Position numbers and translations under genes: made by a program. Source: a virus (taxonomy: Duplodnaviria > Heunggongvirae > Uroviricota > Caudoviricetes). From it: 35,370 nt of DNA. Location of the stretch: the IMG/VR virus record IMGVR_UViG_2778261227_000014; one strand, written 5' to 3'. Shown here one piece after another: positions 6,454-12,805 of this stretch (positions are counted from its first letter, which is position 1; every line of letters starts with the position of its first letter). Under the pieces are notes generated by a model. That model ran no database searches and was not told the DNA's origin. It saw only the letters and a program-made list of their open reading frames with translations.

Positions 6454-9276
6454 ATGACGGCAGAGTACATCAGGGACTGGCAACAACCGCGCCACGCAGT
6501 GGGGTGTGAAGGAACGGGGATCCCCGCTCCTGAATCCGCGCTTTCCTCCTGGCTGGATGCCTACCGGGCTGAGAACGAGCGCCGCCAGGAAATGGCTGAT
6601 GCGGCGTTCTCCGCCACACCGCTGGGCAACCTGATTAATAAAAGCCTGGACGCACAGGAAAAACAGGACAAAACCATCACACTGGCAGGAGACGCCAGAA
6701 AACAGGCACGCGGCGCGGTGGATGAAGCCATGGCCTCGCTGCGCCTGCTGCCGTCCTATCTGCGCGATCCGCTTATTCGCCACCTCTCCTTCCTGCGCAA
6801 AAAACAGGAAGCCGATCGCCGGAAAGGCAAAAAGAGCTGGCAGGCGGAACGCTATGCACGCGGACCCCTGCGCAAAATATTCGAACGTCTGGATAGCACT
6901 GACGGACGCTGGCTGACACCGGGTTATCGCTCCCTTGCCGGACGCGAACGCCTGGACGATTTGCTTTACCTGCCGCAGCTCAACAAACACCAGATACAGA
7001 CGCTGGCCACCATGACGGCGGCGATGTTCAGCAGCACCTTCGAAAAACTCTGCGATGGCTTTGGCGCGACCGATGGCGAGCTGACCATGGATGTAACCCT
7101 GAAGGCGTATCAGATGCTGGCCCGCATGGCGTTACACCTGCACGCCATGCCTCCACATTATGACGCACTGACGACAGACAAAGACCGGAGGAACGAACCG
7201 GACACGGAGCTGCTGCCGGGCGCAATCCTTCGCCTGACCTGTGCGGAATGGTGGAAACGCAAACTGTGGCTGTTACGTTGCGAGTGGAGAGAAGAACAAC
7301 TCCGCGCCGCCTGTCTGGTTTCCAGAAAAACATCACCCTATCTGAGCCAGGACGCGTTAAGCGAGTTTCGCGCACAGCGCGAGAAAACACGCGATTTCCT
7401 GAAAAGTTTCATGCTGGAAAATGAAGACGGGTTCACGATTGATCTCGAGACAGTGTATTACGCGGGAGTAAGTAACCCGGTTCACCGTAAGGCAGAAATG
7501 ATGGCCACCATGAAGGGGCTGGAACTTCTGGCCGAAGCCCGTGGCGACAAAGCGGTGTTTCTGACTGTCACCTGCCCGTCAAAATACCACGCCACAACAG
7601 AGAACGGTCATCCGAATCCCAAATGGAACGGGGCCACCATGCGCGACTCCAGCGATTACCTGGTTAACACGTTTTTTGCAGCGGTCCGCAAGAAACTGAA
7701 CCGCAACGGCCTGCGCTGGTATGGCATCCGCACGGTGGAGCCTCACCATGACGGCACCGTGCACTGGCATATGATGGTCTTTGCTCATCCGGAAGAAATC
7801 GACACCATTGTGTCCCACACCCGCGATATTGCCATTCAGGAAGATCGTCACGAGCTGGGTGATGATATTACCCCACGCTTTAAGGCAGAGTACGTCGACG
7901 GTTCGAAAGGTACGCCGACCAGCTACATCGCCACCTACATCGGAAAGAACCTGGACAGCCGCGCCGTGGGTGGCATTGACCCGAAAACAAGCAAGCCACG
8001 CGTTGATCACGAAACCGGAAAATCAATGGCCGAGAGCGTGGAACGCGCCATCGGCTGGGCGCGCCTTCACCGCGTCCGCCAGTTCCAGTTCTTTGGTATC
8101 CCCTCCCGTCAGGTATGGCGTGAACTCCGCCGCCTTGCCAGTCAGATGGCCCGCAACCCGGAAGGTCCACAACGTCTGGAAAATGACGCAATGGATGCGG
8201 TACTCGCTGCCGCTGATGCCGGGTGTTTTGCCACCTACATTGAGAAACAGGGTGGCGTACTTGTTCCACGCAAGGATTACCTGATTCGCACCGCCTACGA
8301 CCTCGCAGAAGAGCTGAACGATTACGGCGAGCAAAGCGTACAGATTTACGGGATCTGGTCGCCACAAATCGGGGAATCTTCCCGCGTGTGCACGCACCCG
8401 GATAACTGGAAGCTGGTAAGACGTAAACCGGAAGCGGAAGACAGCGCCCGCGAAAATGGTTTTGACCTTCAGGGCGGCCCTGCCGCCCCTTGGACTCGTG
8501 GCAATAACTGTCCCCGTGTACAGGAAACGGACAACAACGGGACAGAACAGCCGGAAGAACGGCCAGCACCGTGGCCGCAGCTCCCTGACGGCGTTGAAGT
8601 GAACGAATGGATGCGCTCACTGAAACGGCACGAACGCCGGGCGCTGATGCGTTCGCTTCGTGACAAACAGGCAAAAAACAGCAGTGATGAAATGCAGAGC
8701 TGGACACAGAGCCGCAAACAGCAGCGGCCTTTGCCTGATAACCACGAATTACTCGCTAAAGAATGGCGGGAGTCTGCTGAATCTCTCGGCCTGCATATCG
8801 GTGAACAGCAGATGCAGCACCTGTTACGGGGCGGCAGTCTGTACGTTGACGGCAGCATCATTGCACCGCAGGGATTTGAAATTGTACGCAAACCGGATAC
8901 CCGACCGGACAGCCGGATCACGCAGCTCTGGCAGCGCCTGAGCCGTAACCACGGCGTAAGCAGCACGGAGATCCGCCATAACCCGGTCGCCAGCTATCTG
9001 GAACAGCTGGGGGCATCAGACCCCGAAGCCGCCGCACGCCTGGCATCCACACTTCAGCAAGACCAGAACACCATGAAAACACCCGTTACCGTGCTTTCTG
9101 ACATGCTGCGCGCCATCCGCGACGCAGAGCACGCACAGAGAATCAGTGAAACCACTGAACGCGCCCGCCGCAAAGCAGACCTGCTGCGGGGTGGCCTGAC
9201 CATTGGAAACAAAAAACAGACAGAAACGGGATTCACAAATCCCGTAAATGAGCAAAAAACGCGCCGCGATATATGA
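6454..9276 (+). CDS. A: Rolling-circle replication initiator, P2 gpA-like endonuclease
   Basis: 940 aa. HUH-type metal motif GTVHWHMMVFAH and paired active-site tyrosines YIATYIGKN (Y-x3-Y), as in P2 A / phiX174 A-type initiators; position after the early genes. Overlapping - strand ORFs (7880-8707 and others) are treated as high-GC artefacts. Confidence 0.85.
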   Translation: MTAEYIRDWQQPRHAVGCEGTGIPAPESALSSWLDAYRAENERRQEMADAAFSATPLGNLINKSLDAQEKQDKTITLAGDARKQARGAVDEAMASLRLLPSYLRDPLIRHLSFLRKKQEADRRKGKKSWQAERYARGPLRKIFERLDSTDGRWLTPGYRSLAGRERLDDLLYLPQLNKHQIQTLATMTAAMFSSTFEKLCDGFGATDGELTMDVTLKAYQMLARMALHLHAMPPHYDALTTDKDRRNEPDTELLPGAILRLTCAEWWKRKLWLLRCEWREEQLRAACLVSRKTSPYLSQDALSEFRAQREKTRDFLKSFMLENEDGFTIDLETVYYAGVSNPVHRKAEMMATMKGLELLAEARGDKAVFLTVTCPSKYHATTENGHPNPKWNGATMRDSSDYLVNTFFAAVRKKLNRNGLRWYGIRTVEPHHDGTVHWHMMVFAHPEEIDTIVSHTRDIAIQEDRHELGDDITPRFKAEYVDGSKGTPTSYIATYIGKNLDSRAVGGIDPKTSKPRVDHETGKSMAESVERAIGWARLHRVRQFQFFGIPSRQVWRELRRLASQMARNPEGPQRLENDAMDAVLAAADAGCFATYIEKQGGVLVPRKDYLIRTAYDLAEELNDYGEQSVQIYGIWSPQIGESSRVCTHPDNWKLVRRKPEAEDSARENGFDLQGGPAAPWTRGNNCPRVQETDNNGTEQPEERPAPWPQLPDGVEVNEWMRSLKRHERRALMRSLRDKQAKNSSDEMQSWTQSRKQQRPLPDNHELLAKEWRESAESLGLHIGEQQMQHLLRGGSLYVDGSIIAPQGFEIVRKPDTRPDSRITQLWQRLSRNHGVSSTEIRHNPVASYLEQLGASDPEAAARLASTLQQDQNTMKTPVTVLSDMLRAIRDAEHAQRISETTERARRKADLLRGGLTIGNKKQTETGFTNPVNEQKTRRDI

Positions 9277-9322
9277 AGCGCGCATAAAACAGGCAAAAAC
9301 GGGATTTCAGAATCCCGTAAAC
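9224..9322. repeat. Two related 8-bp-arm palindromes flanking the A stop codon
   Basis: acgggatt-caca-aatcccgt within 9224-9248 and acgggatt-tcag-aatcccgt within 9297-9322; between them gcgccgcgatatatgaagcgcgc. Confidence 0.5.
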
Positions 9323-9352
9323 GATTAATTAATCAACATAAGGAAAAGCGAC

Positions 9353-10312
9353 ATGAAAATTTGTATCGATGACGGCTCCACCAACATCAAGCTGGCATGG
9401 ACTGAGAACGGCGAACGCCGCAACGCCATCAGCCCGAACAGCTTCAAGTCGGAATGGTCTGCGCCGTTCGGTGGCACGCAGCCCGCGAACTACATGCTTG
9501 ATGGCGTGCGCTATGGTTTTGATCCGGTCAGCGATCGCTTTGTCCAGACGACCGACACGCAATACCAGTACAGCGATGTGAATGTCATTGCCATTCATCA
9601 CGCGCTGGTCAAATCAGGCATCACACCACAGGAAGTGGATGTGGTTGTCACCCTGCCACTGAGCGAATATTTCGACACAAACGCACAGCCGGACATGGCC
9701 AACATCAACCGCAAAAAAGCAAACGTCATGCGTCCGGTGGCGTACCAGAACGGAAAAGCATTCACTATCCGTAACGTACGGGTTATGCCTGAATCCATTC
9801 CGGCTGGTTTTAAAGCACTGGCTGACATGAGTCCGTTTGAATCCCTGCTGATTGTGGATTTAGGCGGAACCACGCTGGATGTGGCAAAGGTTCAGGGACA
9901 ACTGGCGGGTATCAGCCAGGTGTTTTGCGATCCACACGTAGGCGTTTCCCTGATGGCCGATGCCGTACTGTCGGTGATGGCCACTAACGGTATGCGCACC
10001 AGTCACCACATCGCCAATACCATTATCGAACATCGCCATGATGAAGCCTGGCTGCGCCAGCACATCCACAATGACGCGCATTACGCCAGCCTGATGGCGG
10101 TTATTCGTGAAAAGGAAGAAACACTGAAACAACGCGTGATCCGCGCGCTGGCGGTTTTTTCGGGTTACGGGCGGGTGATGGTTGTCGGTGGCGGGGCGGA
10201 GATTGTGGCACCCGCTATCCGCGAAGCCTGCGGAGTTAATGCGACTTTCATCGCGGACGGGGTGCCACAATTTGCTCTGGTTAATGGGCTGTACGCAATG
10301 AACAAGGAGTAA
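9353..10312 (+). CDS. parM: ParM/StbA-like actin-type segregation ATPase
   Basis: 319 aa; N-terminal MKICIDDGSTNIKLAW closely matches plasmid R1 ParM (MLVFIDDGSTNIKLQW, from memory); further shared blocks YSDVNVIAIHHAL, VMPESIPAG, LLIVDLGGTTLD, GVSL, FSGY, VMVVGGGAEI, LVNGLY. AGGA RBS 8 nt upstream. Confidence 0.8.
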   Translation: MKICIDDGSTNIKLAWTENGERRNAISPNSFKSEWSAPFGGTQPANYMLDGVRYGFDPVSDRFVQTTDTQYQYSDVNVIAIHHALVKSGITPQEVDVVVTLPLSEYFDTNAQPDMANINRKKANVMRPVAYQNGKAFTIRNVRVMPESIPAGFKALADMSPFESLLIVDLGGTTLDVAKVQGQLAGISQVFCDPHVGVSLMADAVLSVMATNGMRTSHHIANTIIEHRHDEAWLRQHIHNDAHYASLMAVIREKEETLKQRVIRALAVFSGYGRVMVVGGGAEIVAPAIREACGVNATFIADGVPQFALVNGLYAMNKE

Positions 10313-10316
10313 ACCA

Positions 10317-10628
10317 ATGACGACACCAACCAGAAGAATAAGTTTCTATCTGAAGCCAGCTGCCGTCAAGAACGAAGGAGAAGCATGCGCCTGGCTGGAC
10401 AGCCTTACACCAGAAGCCCGCAAAAGCGGCCAACGCGTGGCTTTTCTGGCCGGGCTGGCACTTCTGAAGACGAATCCGGCAGAGGCTTACCGACTGGCCG
10501 CATGGGCTGATGATGAGATGTTACCTGTGACACAAATCAGCTCAAAAAAGTTTGAAGCACAGTCTGCACCAGTGGCTAAGATAACCAGCCAGATGGCTGG
10601 GAATATCCGGGCGTTATTTCCTGAGTAA
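10317..10628 (+). CDS. parR: ParR/StbB-like DNA-binding adaptor protein
   Basis: 103 aa directly downstream of the parM-like gene; ISFYLKP, AFLAGLALLKTNPAEAY and IRALFPE parallel R1 ParR (IAFKLNP, AALTAGLALYRQDP, LRSLFPKE, from memory); AGGAG RBS. Confidence 0.65.
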   Translation: MTTPTRRISFYLKPAAVKNEGEACAWLDSLTPEARKSGQRVAFLAGLALLKTNPAEAYRLAAWADDEMLPVTQISSKKFEAQSAPVAKITSQMAGNIRALFPE

Positions 10629-10642
10629 AAGCATCTGCGCGA

Positions 10643-10684
10643 AAAATGCTCACGTTTATAGAGAAAATGCTCACGTTTATAGAG
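10643..10684. repeat. Perfect tandem duplication of a 21-bp unit just downstream of the parR-like gene
   Basis: aaaatgctcacgtttatagag at 10643-10663 repeated at 10664-10684. Confidence 0.7.
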
Positions 10685-10777
10685 ACAGTATCATTCCATT
10701 TGGCACACTTACTTCAATAATCGATCTGTTAAACAAATAGATTGTCTATTATCTATCGATTAAAACGATCAATTATC

Positions 10778-10806
10778 TTGACAGTAATGTGCCTTTTTGT
10801 AAGATC
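10778..10806 (+). promoter_or_regulatory. Candidate sigma70 promoter
   Basis: Perfect TTGACA at 10778-10783, 16-17 bp spacer, TAAGAT at 10800-10805; points toward the 11014 gene. Confidence 0.4.
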
Positions 10807-10856
10807 GTTCGCATTGTGAGCGACAAGATAATTGCGCGGCATTGTCCATGCAAAAC

Positions 10857-10882
10857 GCCCCAATAGCAGCAACTATTGGGGC
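10857..10882 (+). other. 10-bp-stem hairpin (possible 5'UTR structure or binding site)
   Basis: gccccaatag-cagcaa-ctattggggc, perfect inverted repeat. Confidence 0.4.
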
Positions 10883-11013
10883 GTAAAACTCGGTCGGACT
10901 CACTTAACCTGATATGCGTGCCTTCCGAAGTAAATCAAAATGTGCGTCGTATATTTTATTGCTTACACGCACCTCTGTAAAGGCACGCATATTTTTCCTA
11001 TGAGGTAAATAAA

Positions 11014-11283
11014 GTGCGGGCTAAAACAGGTATTTGCAAGAACCCTCATCGTTATAATCCAACATTTCTGTCTCTCCCTGAATATCAAGGACAAGAAGGT
11101 CGGCACAAATGCGCTGCCTGTGCTTTTGAGCTAGGCATAAAAGATGCGCTTGAAGGACGCGCTATGGCTCAGAATGATTTAGTTTTAGCTAACATTCCGT
11201 TTAGCCAGGCTGGAACTGTAAGGCACAGAGATGCCTATGAAGCATATGTTCGTGGTTGGCGATTAATACACAGCAACAATTGA
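11014..11283 (+). CDS. Small hypothetical protein with Cys/His cluster
   Basis: 89 aa from GTG at 11014 with GAGG 8 nt upstream; CKNPHRYNP...HKCAACAF; flanked by its own promoter-like region and a downstream terminator. Confidence 0.45.
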   Translation: MRAKTGICKNPHRYNPTFLSLPEYQGQEGRHKCAACAFELGIKDALEGRAMAQNDLVLANIPFSQAGTVRHRDAYEAYVRGWRLIHSNN

Positions 11284-11291
11284 TACTTTTG

Positions 11292-11316
11292 AAGCGCCGA
11301 TAAGGCGCTTTTTTTG
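11292..11316 (+). terminator. Rho-independent terminator
   Basis: agcgcc-gataa-ggcgct hairpin followed by T7 directly after the 11283 stop. Confidence 0.7.
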
Positions 11317-11707
11317 TTTGCACGATAGTGCACAAGTTTGCACAATTTTTTTGAACGACTTTTTGTACTTCCGGCCCGCGTGGTGGCTGGATCCGTCAAG
11401 GATCCGTACGTGCACAAAAAAACGCGTTTTTTCTGCGCGCAGGTGACGGGGGAACAGCCCGCGTTTCAGGGGGTAAATAGCATTCCCTGAACGATGTCGC
11501 AGAGATACAACAGAATGGCTGTATTTCTCACGCTGAGCGTGAAAAAGACGTGAGGGCTTTTGATTTAGGTAAGGCCGTCAAAATCGCACTGAGACGGCGA
11601 GAACATGCAGTCAACGCGGTGGGATTGCGTAAGAGTCTGACTGTCGATGATGGCAATCAGCAGAAAAGCATCGTGAAATTATCTGACTGATACAGGAGCT
11701 GGAGAGT

Positions 11708-11732
11708 CGGGGCATAAATTTTTTATGCCCCG
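11708..11732. other. Hairpin adjacent to the portal gene stop
   Basis: cggggcata-aattttt-tatgccccg at 11708-11732, 27 bp beyond the Q stop; no clean T-run on either side. Confidence 0.35.
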
Positions 11733-11758
11733 GCGAAGCAGCAGACAAGCGAAGCGCG

Positions 11759-12805
11759 TCAGGATGTGGGCTGGGTGTCTAACAGTGCGTAAGGGTTAAA
11801 GCGGATCACCTCTTCGCCAAGCCAGTCATTGATGTGCTTCATGGCCTCCATGACAGGCATCAGCTCGTTAATTGCGTAAACCCGCGCGGCCTTCTCCACA
11901 TCGCCAAACGCACTTTTTTCGCCCGGCATCGCCCCCATCAGTTGCGGCGGAACGCGGTGCGCAGCCAGCACATCATCACGGGATGCCGCCTTAACATTCA
12001 TGAACTCATCCTTTGCGGTGATCTGCTGGAACGGCAAAATTTGCACCCCCTCTTTGCCCCCGTTGGGCGCATGAATGAGCACGTTTTTAAATGCACCACC
12101 ACCACGCGCACCCTGTAGCGTTTCCTTCAGGGAGTCCATGCTTTCGCGGTTTACCTGCGCTGCACCGATGTAGATGATGCACCCGGCGTGGGAGCCGTTG
12201 TCGTAATACAGTTTTCTGAACATGTCCGCCGAATGAGACAGGCTGGCCGAGAGTAATGCGCCGAGATATTCCGGCATGCCGTAGATTTCCTGGTTAATGT
12301 CAGGATTCATCAGGTGGCACACTTTGCCAGGGCGAAACTGAAACGCGTCCTTGCCATCCTGCACATACCACCATGATTCAAGATCGCTTCCGCGTCGCAT
12401 GTATTTCGCCAGGGCGTGCCGTAATTTAAGTGGTTCGCCGAGCATATTGCTTCGAAGCTCAAGGAATGCGTTACCGAACACAAACCAGTCCAGCGCCAGC
12501 GCCGAGAAATCCTGCCGGGAAAGCAGCGGATGCGGAATATAGCAGCCGAGCAATACATTACGCTTAAAGTAAAGCGCAGACTGATGCCAGGACGTTTGCC
12601 GGGCAGCTCTTGCCAGACCGTACCAGTCCACCGGGGTTTCATACCACCGACCGTTATCAGCACAGTACATATTGTCCAGCAGGTCATGCCCGGTCAGGCG
12701 GTAAGGACCATCAAATGTGAATGCACTGAGCGACGATTCTTTCCTGAGCGCATCAGCGAGATCAATGCGTGAACTCATGCGCACTTTTTTATTTTTTCTG
12801 CTCAT
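11759..12805 (-). CDS. Q: Portal protein, P2 gpQ-like
   Basis: 348 aa, ATG at 12805 overlapping the P stop (ATGA); size and position match P2 Q, leftward and adjacent to terminase. Confidence 0.85.
   Translation of the reverse strand: MSRKNKKVRMSSRIDLADALRKESSLSAFTFDGPYRLTGHDLLDNMYCADNGRWYETPVDWYGLARAARQTSWHQSALYFKRNVLLGCYIPHPLLSRQDFSALALDWFVFGNAFLELRSNMLGEPLKLRHALAKYMRRGSDLESWWYVQDGKDAFQFRPGKVCHLMNPDINQEIYGMPEYLGALLSASLSHSADMFRKLYYDNGSHAGCIIYIGAAQVNRESMDSLKETLQGARGGGAFKNVLIHAPNGGKEGVQILPFQQITAKDEFMNVKAASRDDVLAAHRVPPQLMGAMPGEKSAFGDVEKAARVYAINELMPVMEAMKHINDWLGEEVIRFNPYALLDTQPTS

Follow-up and report, generated by a model that had tools for sequence, protein, structure and literature searches.

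A predicted dyad-type parC centromere upstream of parMR in P88-like prophages of the P2 family

Type II partition loci combine an actin-like ATPase, ParM, with a small ParR gene directly downstream and with cis-acting repeats, parC, that lie directly 5′ of parM and are inherited together with parMR. In plasmid R1, parC is built from ten 11-bp direct iterons (5 + 5), and in pSK41 from four repeats of 20 bp. The two halves of the R1 parC flank the promoter, and the DNA between them is looped out; ribbon-helix-helix (RHH) proteins recognize direct and inverted repeats equivalently (PMC5016525). In the SXT/R391 integrative and conjugative elements (ICEs), the module srpMRC uses a centromere, srpC, made of a few direct and inverted repeats, for which binding by SrpR was found by electrophoretic mobility shift assay (EMSA) (PMC4489591). 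In the Corynebacterium glutamicum prophage CGP3, the AlpAC/alpS system comprises an actin-like filament protein and an adaptor whose DNA targets are repeats within its own promoter region (PMC4446434, PMC5539076); it is expressed early after induction and is required for efficient phage DNA replication, an example of an actin-like system that serves a prophage in replicating or positioning its excised genome (PMC4446434). Here we describe a stretch of 35,370 bp (IMG/VR record IMGVR_UViG_2778261227_000014, referred to as a whole as the window), which is assigned by its sequence to a P88-like phage (genus Xuanwuvirus, Peduoviridae, P2 family) and in which two palindromes precede a parM-parR gene pair. 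We propose that the region 9205–9335 is probably a compact, dyad-type parC centromere/operator, the palindromes of which would be bound by ParR. Our literature search brought up no publication dealing with the centromere of the P88-type system or with its function, and the P88 genome paper does not mention partition; the parM and parR genes are routinely annotated already, and the cis site is currently unmarked.

The two palindromes, which start 73 bp apart, are each 20 bp long and consist of perfect 8-bp arms around a 4-nt loop (Table 1). An earlier note on this DNA had described such a matching pair, one palindrome in the last codons of gene A and the other just upstream of parM, and this description was confirmed: site 1 starts 16 codons before the gene A stop (TGA, 9274–9276), and site 2 ends 34 nt before the parM ATG (9353). 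When ACGGGATT-N4-AATCCCGT was searched for with up to two mismatches, just these two matches were returned in the 35,370 bp (0.01 expected), and none of 100 shuffled sequences contained two or more. Each palindrome forms the core of one unit of a 42-nt direct repeat, so that the element is both palindromic and iterated. The same note had called the sites palindromes rather than iterons, which is right as to the palindromes and too sharp as to the contrast. It had also called the neighboring genes ParM-like and ParR-like, an identification borne out by the comparisons given below. No extra GGGATT-like half-sites were found between the two palindromes. A third, weak dyad follows site 2 and contains an ATTAAT box; it is a candidate −10 element or a candidate weak extra ParR site. 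Its core pattern, GATT-N4-AATC, has four matches in the window, of which three are clustered at the palindrome region and the third dyad; the fourth (2440–2451), in a coding sequence close to the repressor/integrase region, has no GG/CC flanks and was set aside as compatible with chance. Finally, the A-tract phasing across both sites is the strongest in the window (matched by none of the 1763 other scanning windows and by 1 of 2000 shuffles), and this DNA is likely to be intrinsically bent.

Table 1. Positions of the predicted parC element and the genes around it in the 35,370-bp window
Feature	Position	Strand	Basis
Gene A (P2-type replication endonuclease)	6454–9276	+	Pfam Phage_GPA, E = 2e-131
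Phased A-tracts, period 10.5 bp, spanning both sites	9205–9330		Phasing scan
Direct repeat unit 1, 42 nt (A-rich leader, palindrome, AAA)	9210–9251	+	Reference copy
Site 1, ACGGGATT-CACA-AATCCCGT (= ACGGGATTcacaAATCCCGT); core GGGATT-N4-AATCCC at 9228–9243	9226–9245		Sequence
GC-rich inverted repeat CGCGC-N13-GCGCG, between the sites and across the gene A stop	9260–9282		Sequence and folding
Direct repeat unit 2, 42 nt, 81% identical to unit 1 and 73 bp downstream	9283–9324	+	Repeat search
Site 2, ACGGGATT-TCAG-AATCCCGT (= ACGGGATTtcagAATCCCGT); core at 9301–9316	9299–9318		Sequence
Third, weak dyad, GATTAATTAATC, containing the ATTAAT box (9328–9333)	9323–9334		GATT-N4-AATC search
Ribosome binding site of parM, AAGGAAA	9341–9347	+	Sequence; kept in all lineages
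parM (actin-like segregation ATPase, 319 aa)	9353–10312	+	Pfam StbA_N (E = 7e-82) and ParM C-terminal domain (E = 6e-69)
parR (predicted centromere-binding adaptor, 103 aa)	10317–10628	+	Pfam Plasmid_stab_B PF10784, E = 1e-23

The two proteins place the locus in the R1 family. ParM matches the R1 ParM structures (1MWK and others) at E = 1e-92 and is 46–52% identical to plasmid ParMs. The parR gene starts 5 nt past the parM stop; its product is 33% identical to R1 StbB/ParR over residues 1–61, R1 StbB matches the same Pfam family, and a ParR profile finds pB171 ParR (PDB 2JD3, E = 0.015) over residues 8–76, the DNA-binding domain. The N-terminal strand TRRISFYLKP and the C-terminal NIRALFPE are conserved, and the C-terminal motif N-I-x-x-x-F-P is invariant across 19 ParR variants with widely different linkers. 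Among phages with ParM at least 97% identical, this motif and the N-terminal R-R-I-S-F-Y-L-K-P are invariant although ParR spans 54–98% identity. This variability of ParR suggests fast diversification or mosaic exchange of the adaptor, possibly serving to avoid incompatibility between co-resident prophages. The ParR changes (including those at loci L098, L102, and L104) are focused in the helices and the linker, with both ends fixed.

Compared with the parC of R1/NR1 (stbA-stbB), the region studied here likewise lies directly 5′ of a homologous parM followed by parR, is divided into two clusters with DNA between them, and has 10.5-bp phased A-tracts of similar power (computed for both). A GGG/CCC core is present in the half-sites of the window, and the iterons of R1 have CCC at their end (AAACAAAACCC). 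However, R1 has ten direct iterons and a recognizable promoter, whereas this element has two 20-bp palindromes and a weak dyad, with no consensus promoter found; its first site is placed inside the coding end of the upstream gene, and its host is an integrating P2-like prophage instead of a plasmid. Like srpMRC, the locus is a type II, actin-like partition module in a normally chromosomal element, and srpC is a functional precedent in this respect. It differs in that SrpR lacks recognizable similarity to ParR while the ParR described here is clearly of the R1 family, in the host element (ICE versus phage), in repeat sequence and spacing, and in that binding is here a prediction. With AlpAC/alpS it shares a prophage setting, an actin-like protein, and an adaptor, which makes that system a plausible model for ParMRC in an integrated prophage, although in CGP3 the adaptor gene comes first, the repeats are 24 short TTAAnnG units, the host is Gram-positive, and the proteins show no sequence relationship to R1 ParM/ParR.

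The sites are linked to parMR and not to gene A. The similarity to P88 and most relatives breaks off exactly at the parR stop (10628), and the final ~17 codons of gene A extend into cassette DNA. In the Escherichia coli prophages L092 and L093, the gene A 3′ region is 95–97% identical to that of the window and homology is lost after ~9176; in these prophages, genes for an AAA ATPase and an S8 peptidase take the place of parMR, and the palindromes are missing. Locus L069, conversely, has a different gene A 3′ end, which joins the window sequence at ~9205–9217, and keeps both palindromes together with parMR. Since the same gene A with other cargo lacks the palindromes and a different gene A end retains them, the sites belong to parMR. 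The whole is a self-contained, putative parC-parM-parR cassette of 1.4 kb (~9205–10628) in the cargo slot of P88-like prophages, and its boundaries make the 148 bp 5′ of parM the sole non-coding DNA that always accompanies parMR. A plasmid search with ParR returned seven records, all of them apparently P88-like elements, with no independent plasmid context.

The P88-like family was found in 1372 of 5426 complete E. coli genomes (about a quarter), and 1532 of its 1534 places are chromosomal. One complete P88-like genome (L194) is on record as a 34,461-bp circular, non-mobilizable plasmid, pZ1323PEC0009-2, from an E. coli isolate (NZ_CP148288.1), which could reflect occasional episomal carriage or the assembly of induced phage DNA. 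Rather than being absent from homologous loci, which the earlier note had named as grounds for giving up its idea, both sites are present in 114 of 116 distinct P88-like loci. Their spacing is 73 bp in 111 of the 114, 74 bp in two, and 72 bp in one, and they lie at −125/−52 relative to parM in 108 of the 116. Positions 9228–9327 are the locally most variable DNA: the changes are found in the 4-nt loops, at the outer ends of the arms, and at two inner positions, and the central GG/CC pairs are invariant (115 of 115 loci scored). In L028 (2430–2470), a recombinant of the two 42-nt units has left a single palindrome without the 73-bp interval, and gene A there stops at a TAA inside GATTAA, giving it a different C-terminal tail. 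In L069 (2370–2460), the same G-to-A change (AGGATT) is seen in both left half-sites, which suggests gene conversion between the 42-nt units or parallel change.

Outside this family, P2-like prophages from several genera likewise have parMR in the slot that runs from gene A to the portal gene, with ParM identities to the window of 94% (Hafnia, L095), 62% (Hafnia, L106), 62% (Plesiomonas, L108), 58% (Serratia, L109), and 54% (Enterobacter, L110). When genome contigs were searched with ParM, all of the matches listed were at least 97% identical to it, and a search of viral contigs with ParM of the 62% Hafnia lineage gave no match. Upstream of parM, GGG-N10-CCC site pairs are found in the 94% Hafnia lineage (GGGATTCATGAATCCC and GGGATTTGAAAATCCC, 73 bp apart, at −124/−51), in the 62% Hafnia lineage (GGGATTGAGGAAACCC and GGGTTCATTAAATCCC, 73 bp apart, at −128/−55), and in Plesiomonas (GGGACAACAAAAACCC and GGGACAACACTAACCC, 72 bp apart, at −131/−59). 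Dinucleotide-preserving shuffles of each upstream region yielded such a pair in 0 of 5000 cases, in every lineage. In the same order of lineages, identity to the window was 100, 88, and 71% over the 24 nt of half-site, 65, 47, and 43% in the DNA between the sites, 60, 33, and 30% in the 30-nt left flank, and 50, 12, and 38% in the 4-nt central spacers. An alignment of the four lineages contains three conserved blocks, namely site 1, site 2, and the ATTAAT box just 5′ of the ribosome binding site; this box is invariant, lies 7–14 bp downstream of site 2, and might serve as a weak −10 element. The gene overlapped by site 1 is gene A in the window and in Plesiomonas versus a 167-aa open reading frame (ORF) in the 62% Hafnia lineage, and the gene A stop also shifts; the conserved thing is therefore not a protein tail across site 1. 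The GC-rich inverted repeat between the sites is partly retained in the 94% Hafnia lineage and missing from the 62% lineages.

In the Serratia/Enterobacter clade, ParR begins NRKISFYLKP instead of TRRISFYLKP, and the dyad architecture is different as well: one long inverted repeat, GGGAAC..AGAAAAAT-N28-ATTTTTCT..GTTCCC, is found. In loci L109, L110, and L113–L115, the form GGGAACGAtATAGAAAAAT-N28-ATTTTTCTrTTTCgTTCCC replaces the two short dyads ~40–130 nt 5′ of parM. A second palindrome, GCCGTTTAAACGGC, comes after the long inverted repeat in these Serratia/Enterobacter P2-like phages.

Taken with the membership of ParM and ParR in the R1 family, the anatomy of the sites, their linkage to the cassette, and the conservation of a two-site frame at fixed spacing are the basis for reading 9205–9335 as parC. 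They make the earlier idea of ParR-type sites the best-supported account of the palindromes, and the element is best described as a putative dyad-type variant of parC in a P2-like prophage, not something categorically new. An actin-like ATPase gene is followed directly by a small parR, and two strong dyads and one weak dyad lie within 130 bp directly 5′ of parM and are co-inherited with parMR. The tandem direct array of 10–11 bp iterons is what the locus lacks, as its half-sites form inverted pairs; its one resemblance to an iteron array is the A-tract phasing, which is lineage-specific. It is hence a variant and not a typical member of the class.

How such a site might work can be outlined from related proteins. 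In Arc and Mnt, a dyad of ~20 bp is occupied by paired RHH dimers on adjacent helical turns. The likeness of these repressors, and of omega of pSM19035, to the present element is confined to binding geometry, since they are repressors or type Ib centromere-binding proteins and not adaptors of actin-like motors. RHH proteins read DNA by their N-terminal strand, and the C-terminal tail of ParR binds ParM (PMC5016525). The RRISFYLKP strand of ParR is thus likely to be its DNA-reading element; the palindrome variants do not follow ParR type, which fits recognition by an invariant N-terminal strand. We infer ParR binding, its stoichiometry, looping, autoregulation, and the biological role, and the proposed sequence of events is as follows: (i) ParR, as an RHH protein of the R1 StbB/ParR family, would insert its RRISFYL strand into the major groove at each GGGATT half-site, and with half-sites 10 bp apart center to center two ParR dimers would sit on each palindrome; (ii) the 73 bp, being ~7 helical turns, would set both palindromes on the same DNA face, with A-tract-bent DNA between them in this lineage, so that they could be joined in one partition complex with the DNA between looped out, as in the split parC of R1; (iii) the clustered C-terminal tails (NIRALFPE) would capture the ends of ParM filaments; and (iv) occupancy of site 2 and the ATTAAT box would probably also repress parM transcription.

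Several observations weigh against this account. With only four strong half-sites, compared with the ten iterons in R1, a full ParR ring may not form. A sigma-70 promoter scan found no consensus site in 9200–9352, which leaves autoregulation a conjecture, and parMR may simply be transcribed by read-through from gene A. One half-site change without compensation (e.g., GGGACT or AATCCT) is present in roughly half of the P88-like loci, so degeneracy is tolerated, and a degenerate remnant on the E. coli EC7518 chromosome (L091, 930–4311) has parMR but no sites. Nor is the A-tract phasing general: it is lineage-specific and is not conserved in the 62% Hafnia lineage or Plesiomonas. The AlphaFold2 model of the ParR monomer (19-sequence alignment) has a mean predicted local distance difference test score (pLDDT) of 57.7 with a disordered N terminus and is too poor to confirm the fold, although low confidence is expected for the monomer because the ribbon forms only in the dimer.

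Some related candidates were discarded. Phasing at 10.5 bp is present in the P88-like, Hafnia (94%), R1, IncL/M, and Pantoea parC regions, but as a universal signature it fails, being absent from the 62% Hafnia lineage, Plesiomonas, D6, and IncK2/Z. Two promoter candidates picked manually (TGAGCA-N15-TATATG, and ATTAAT at 9328–9333) are weak and are not claimed. As to the remnant L091, it keeps an integrase, a repressor, a cox-like gene, and a DUF4761 gene, then parM-parR directly; gene A and everything upstream of the position corresponding to 9319 of the window are deleted, with the junction at that position.

The best surviving alternative to a centromere is that the sites regulate parMR expression through some other protein, which could be a host factor or a different regulator of the phage. 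Dyads of 16–20 bp are typical operators of many regulator families, ParR is a ligand that we infer, and no promoter can be assigned. We nevertheless consider such an operator unlikely, as the motif is found nowhere else in the 35-kb phage, moves with parMR across differing gene A ends and cargo, and gives way to another architecture when the N terminus of ParR shifts, in the Serratia/Enterobacter clade. Moreover, ParMR needs a cis site, and this region is the cassette's sole conserved non-coding DNA.

Two further alternatives assign the palindromes a role in RNA. The first is that they are intrinsic terminators on the minus strand: leftward transcription, whether read-through of the late P-Q operon or initiated at cargo promoters, would end there and not enter gene A in antisense. 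A terminator scan does flag both on that strand, each as an 8-bp stem and a 4-nt loop followed by TTTTTGCC or TTCTGTCTG; the minus-strand hairpins fold at −10.2 kcal/mol, palindrome 2 with the UUUUUG after it makes a fair terminator in the window, and no canonical minus-strand terminator was flagged from the portal gene to parR. However, there is no minus-strand gene across parMR, the same gene A with other cargo carries no such element, and the 62% lineages keep the sites and their spacing with hairpins of ~−4 kcal/mol and without the A/T tails. The hairpins are weaker already in the 94% Hafnia lineage (~−7 kcal/mol, compared with −10.7 kcal/mol in the window); since the hairpin weakens while the sites persist, what is conserved is two sequence-specific sites and their spacing and not a stem-loop. 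The frequent site 2 variants (G·T, in 51 and 24 of 115 loci) preserve pairing on the plus strand only and would be A·C mismatches in a minus-strand transcript. Given that compensatory changes are lacking as well, we regard terminators as distinctly improbable.

The second RNA-based alternative, to which we give a lower probability than to terminators, is that plus-strand hairpins in an A-parM transcript stabilize the mRNA or, as a site of processing, separate the expression of gene A from that of parMR. No plus-strand terminator was found between A and parM, which makes co-transcription likely; each palindrome folds at −10.7 to −11 kcal/mol, and the two together can form a composite helix of ~20 bp (z = −5.8). 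Yet among 115 loci not one compensated double change was found at any of the 16 stem pairs, the commonest site 1 variant (C·A, 36 of 115 loci) is a mismatch on the plus strand and preserves pairing on the minus strand only, and an Rfam scan of 8900–11800 at E ≤ 1 gave no match at the palindromes. As site 1 and site 2 thus have opposite strand preferences, no single RNA strand benefits. Hairpin potential is also lost in the 62% Hafnia lineage and Plesiomonas, where the sites remain.

A neutral origin, as the relic of a 73-bp tandem duplication or as a recombination scar at the cassette edge, is very hard to credit. The palindromes do lie within a 42-nt direct repeat, the local substitution density is the highest, and recombination between the units does occur (L028); but the half-site cores are nearly invariant inside this otherwise variable stretch, the two-site frame and its spacing survive where the inter-site DNA is 43–47% identical, and shuffling never yields such a pair. 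The P2 gpA origin/nick site lies within gene A, and a share in that replication origin is the least credible alternative of all: one palindrome does lie inside the gene A 3′ end and HUH-type initiators often act at hairpins, but prophages with a 95–97% identical gene A 3′ region and other cargo have no palindromes and share nothing after ~9176, and L069 keeps the palindromes despite its different gene A end.

If ParR binds the palindromes, this would be a type II centromere unlike the R1 and pSK41 arrays, with two 20-bp palindromes at a fixed 72–73 bp and the first in the coding end of a gene, and it would offer a small, defined substrate for finding the minimum number of ParR dimers needed to capture a ParM filament. 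The locus also raises the question of why a common and nearly always chromosomal P2-like prophage keeps a plasmid segregation machine. Possible answers are (i) segregation of the excised, replicating genome, (ii) an occasional plasmid state, or (iii) spatial organization of replication, as in CGP3. We put forward only tentatively, and think it rather doubtful, that a minimal type II centromere works in P2-family prophages and that ParM filaments position or segregate the circular phage genome after excision or infection. Were this true, an integrating phage would have a transient plasmid-like (episomal) phase or a cytoskeleton-organized replication site, as proposed for SXT/R391 ICEs and CGP3, and a ParR partition complex could be built on just four half-sites. 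In practice, many prophage records could be given a putative parC annotation at the counterpart of 9205–9335.

The surroundings of the cassette are modular. Over 8800–11400, the window is 95–97% identical to Escherichia phages 520873, 503458, P88, and others. The local order is gene A, parM, parR, ~1.1 kb of variable DNA with the cos region, and then, on the minus strand, the genes for portal and terminase. The part of this variable DNA directly 3′ of parR (10629–11013), which had been put forward as an alternative centromere region, does not support that role: it is variable cargo, found in just 4 of 16 matching phage records and missing from most relatives. It is probably the control region of an uncharacterized ORF (11014–11283, phrog_3941). 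It contains a perfect 21-nt tandem repeat (AAAATGCTCACGTTTATAGAG, two copies, 10643–10684), a hairpin with 12-bp arms (10855–10884) that has weak, sub-threshold Rfam matches to ctRNA/sar, a perfect 13-bp inverted repeat (10912–10924/10980–10992), and promoter-like sites on the plus strand (10778–10805) and the minus strand (10981–10953).

The slot from gene A (or parR) to cos/portal is a cargo hot spot (L092/L093 3520–6477, L109, L110, L096, and L091). Its occupants are HicAB, a KAP NTPase, an Rrf2 regulator, a helix-turn-helix and PIN pair, or, where parMR is replaced, an AAA ATPase with an S8 peptidase; most of these cargo genes are defense-like or toxin-antitoxin-like. Near the cos region, at 11291–11311, there is a strong plus-strand terminator-like hairpin (GAAGCGCC-GATAA-GGCGCTT, then a T-run), and directly past the portal gene stop, at 11709–11731, lies a GC-rich hairpin, GGGGCAT-AAATTTTTT-ATGCCCC.

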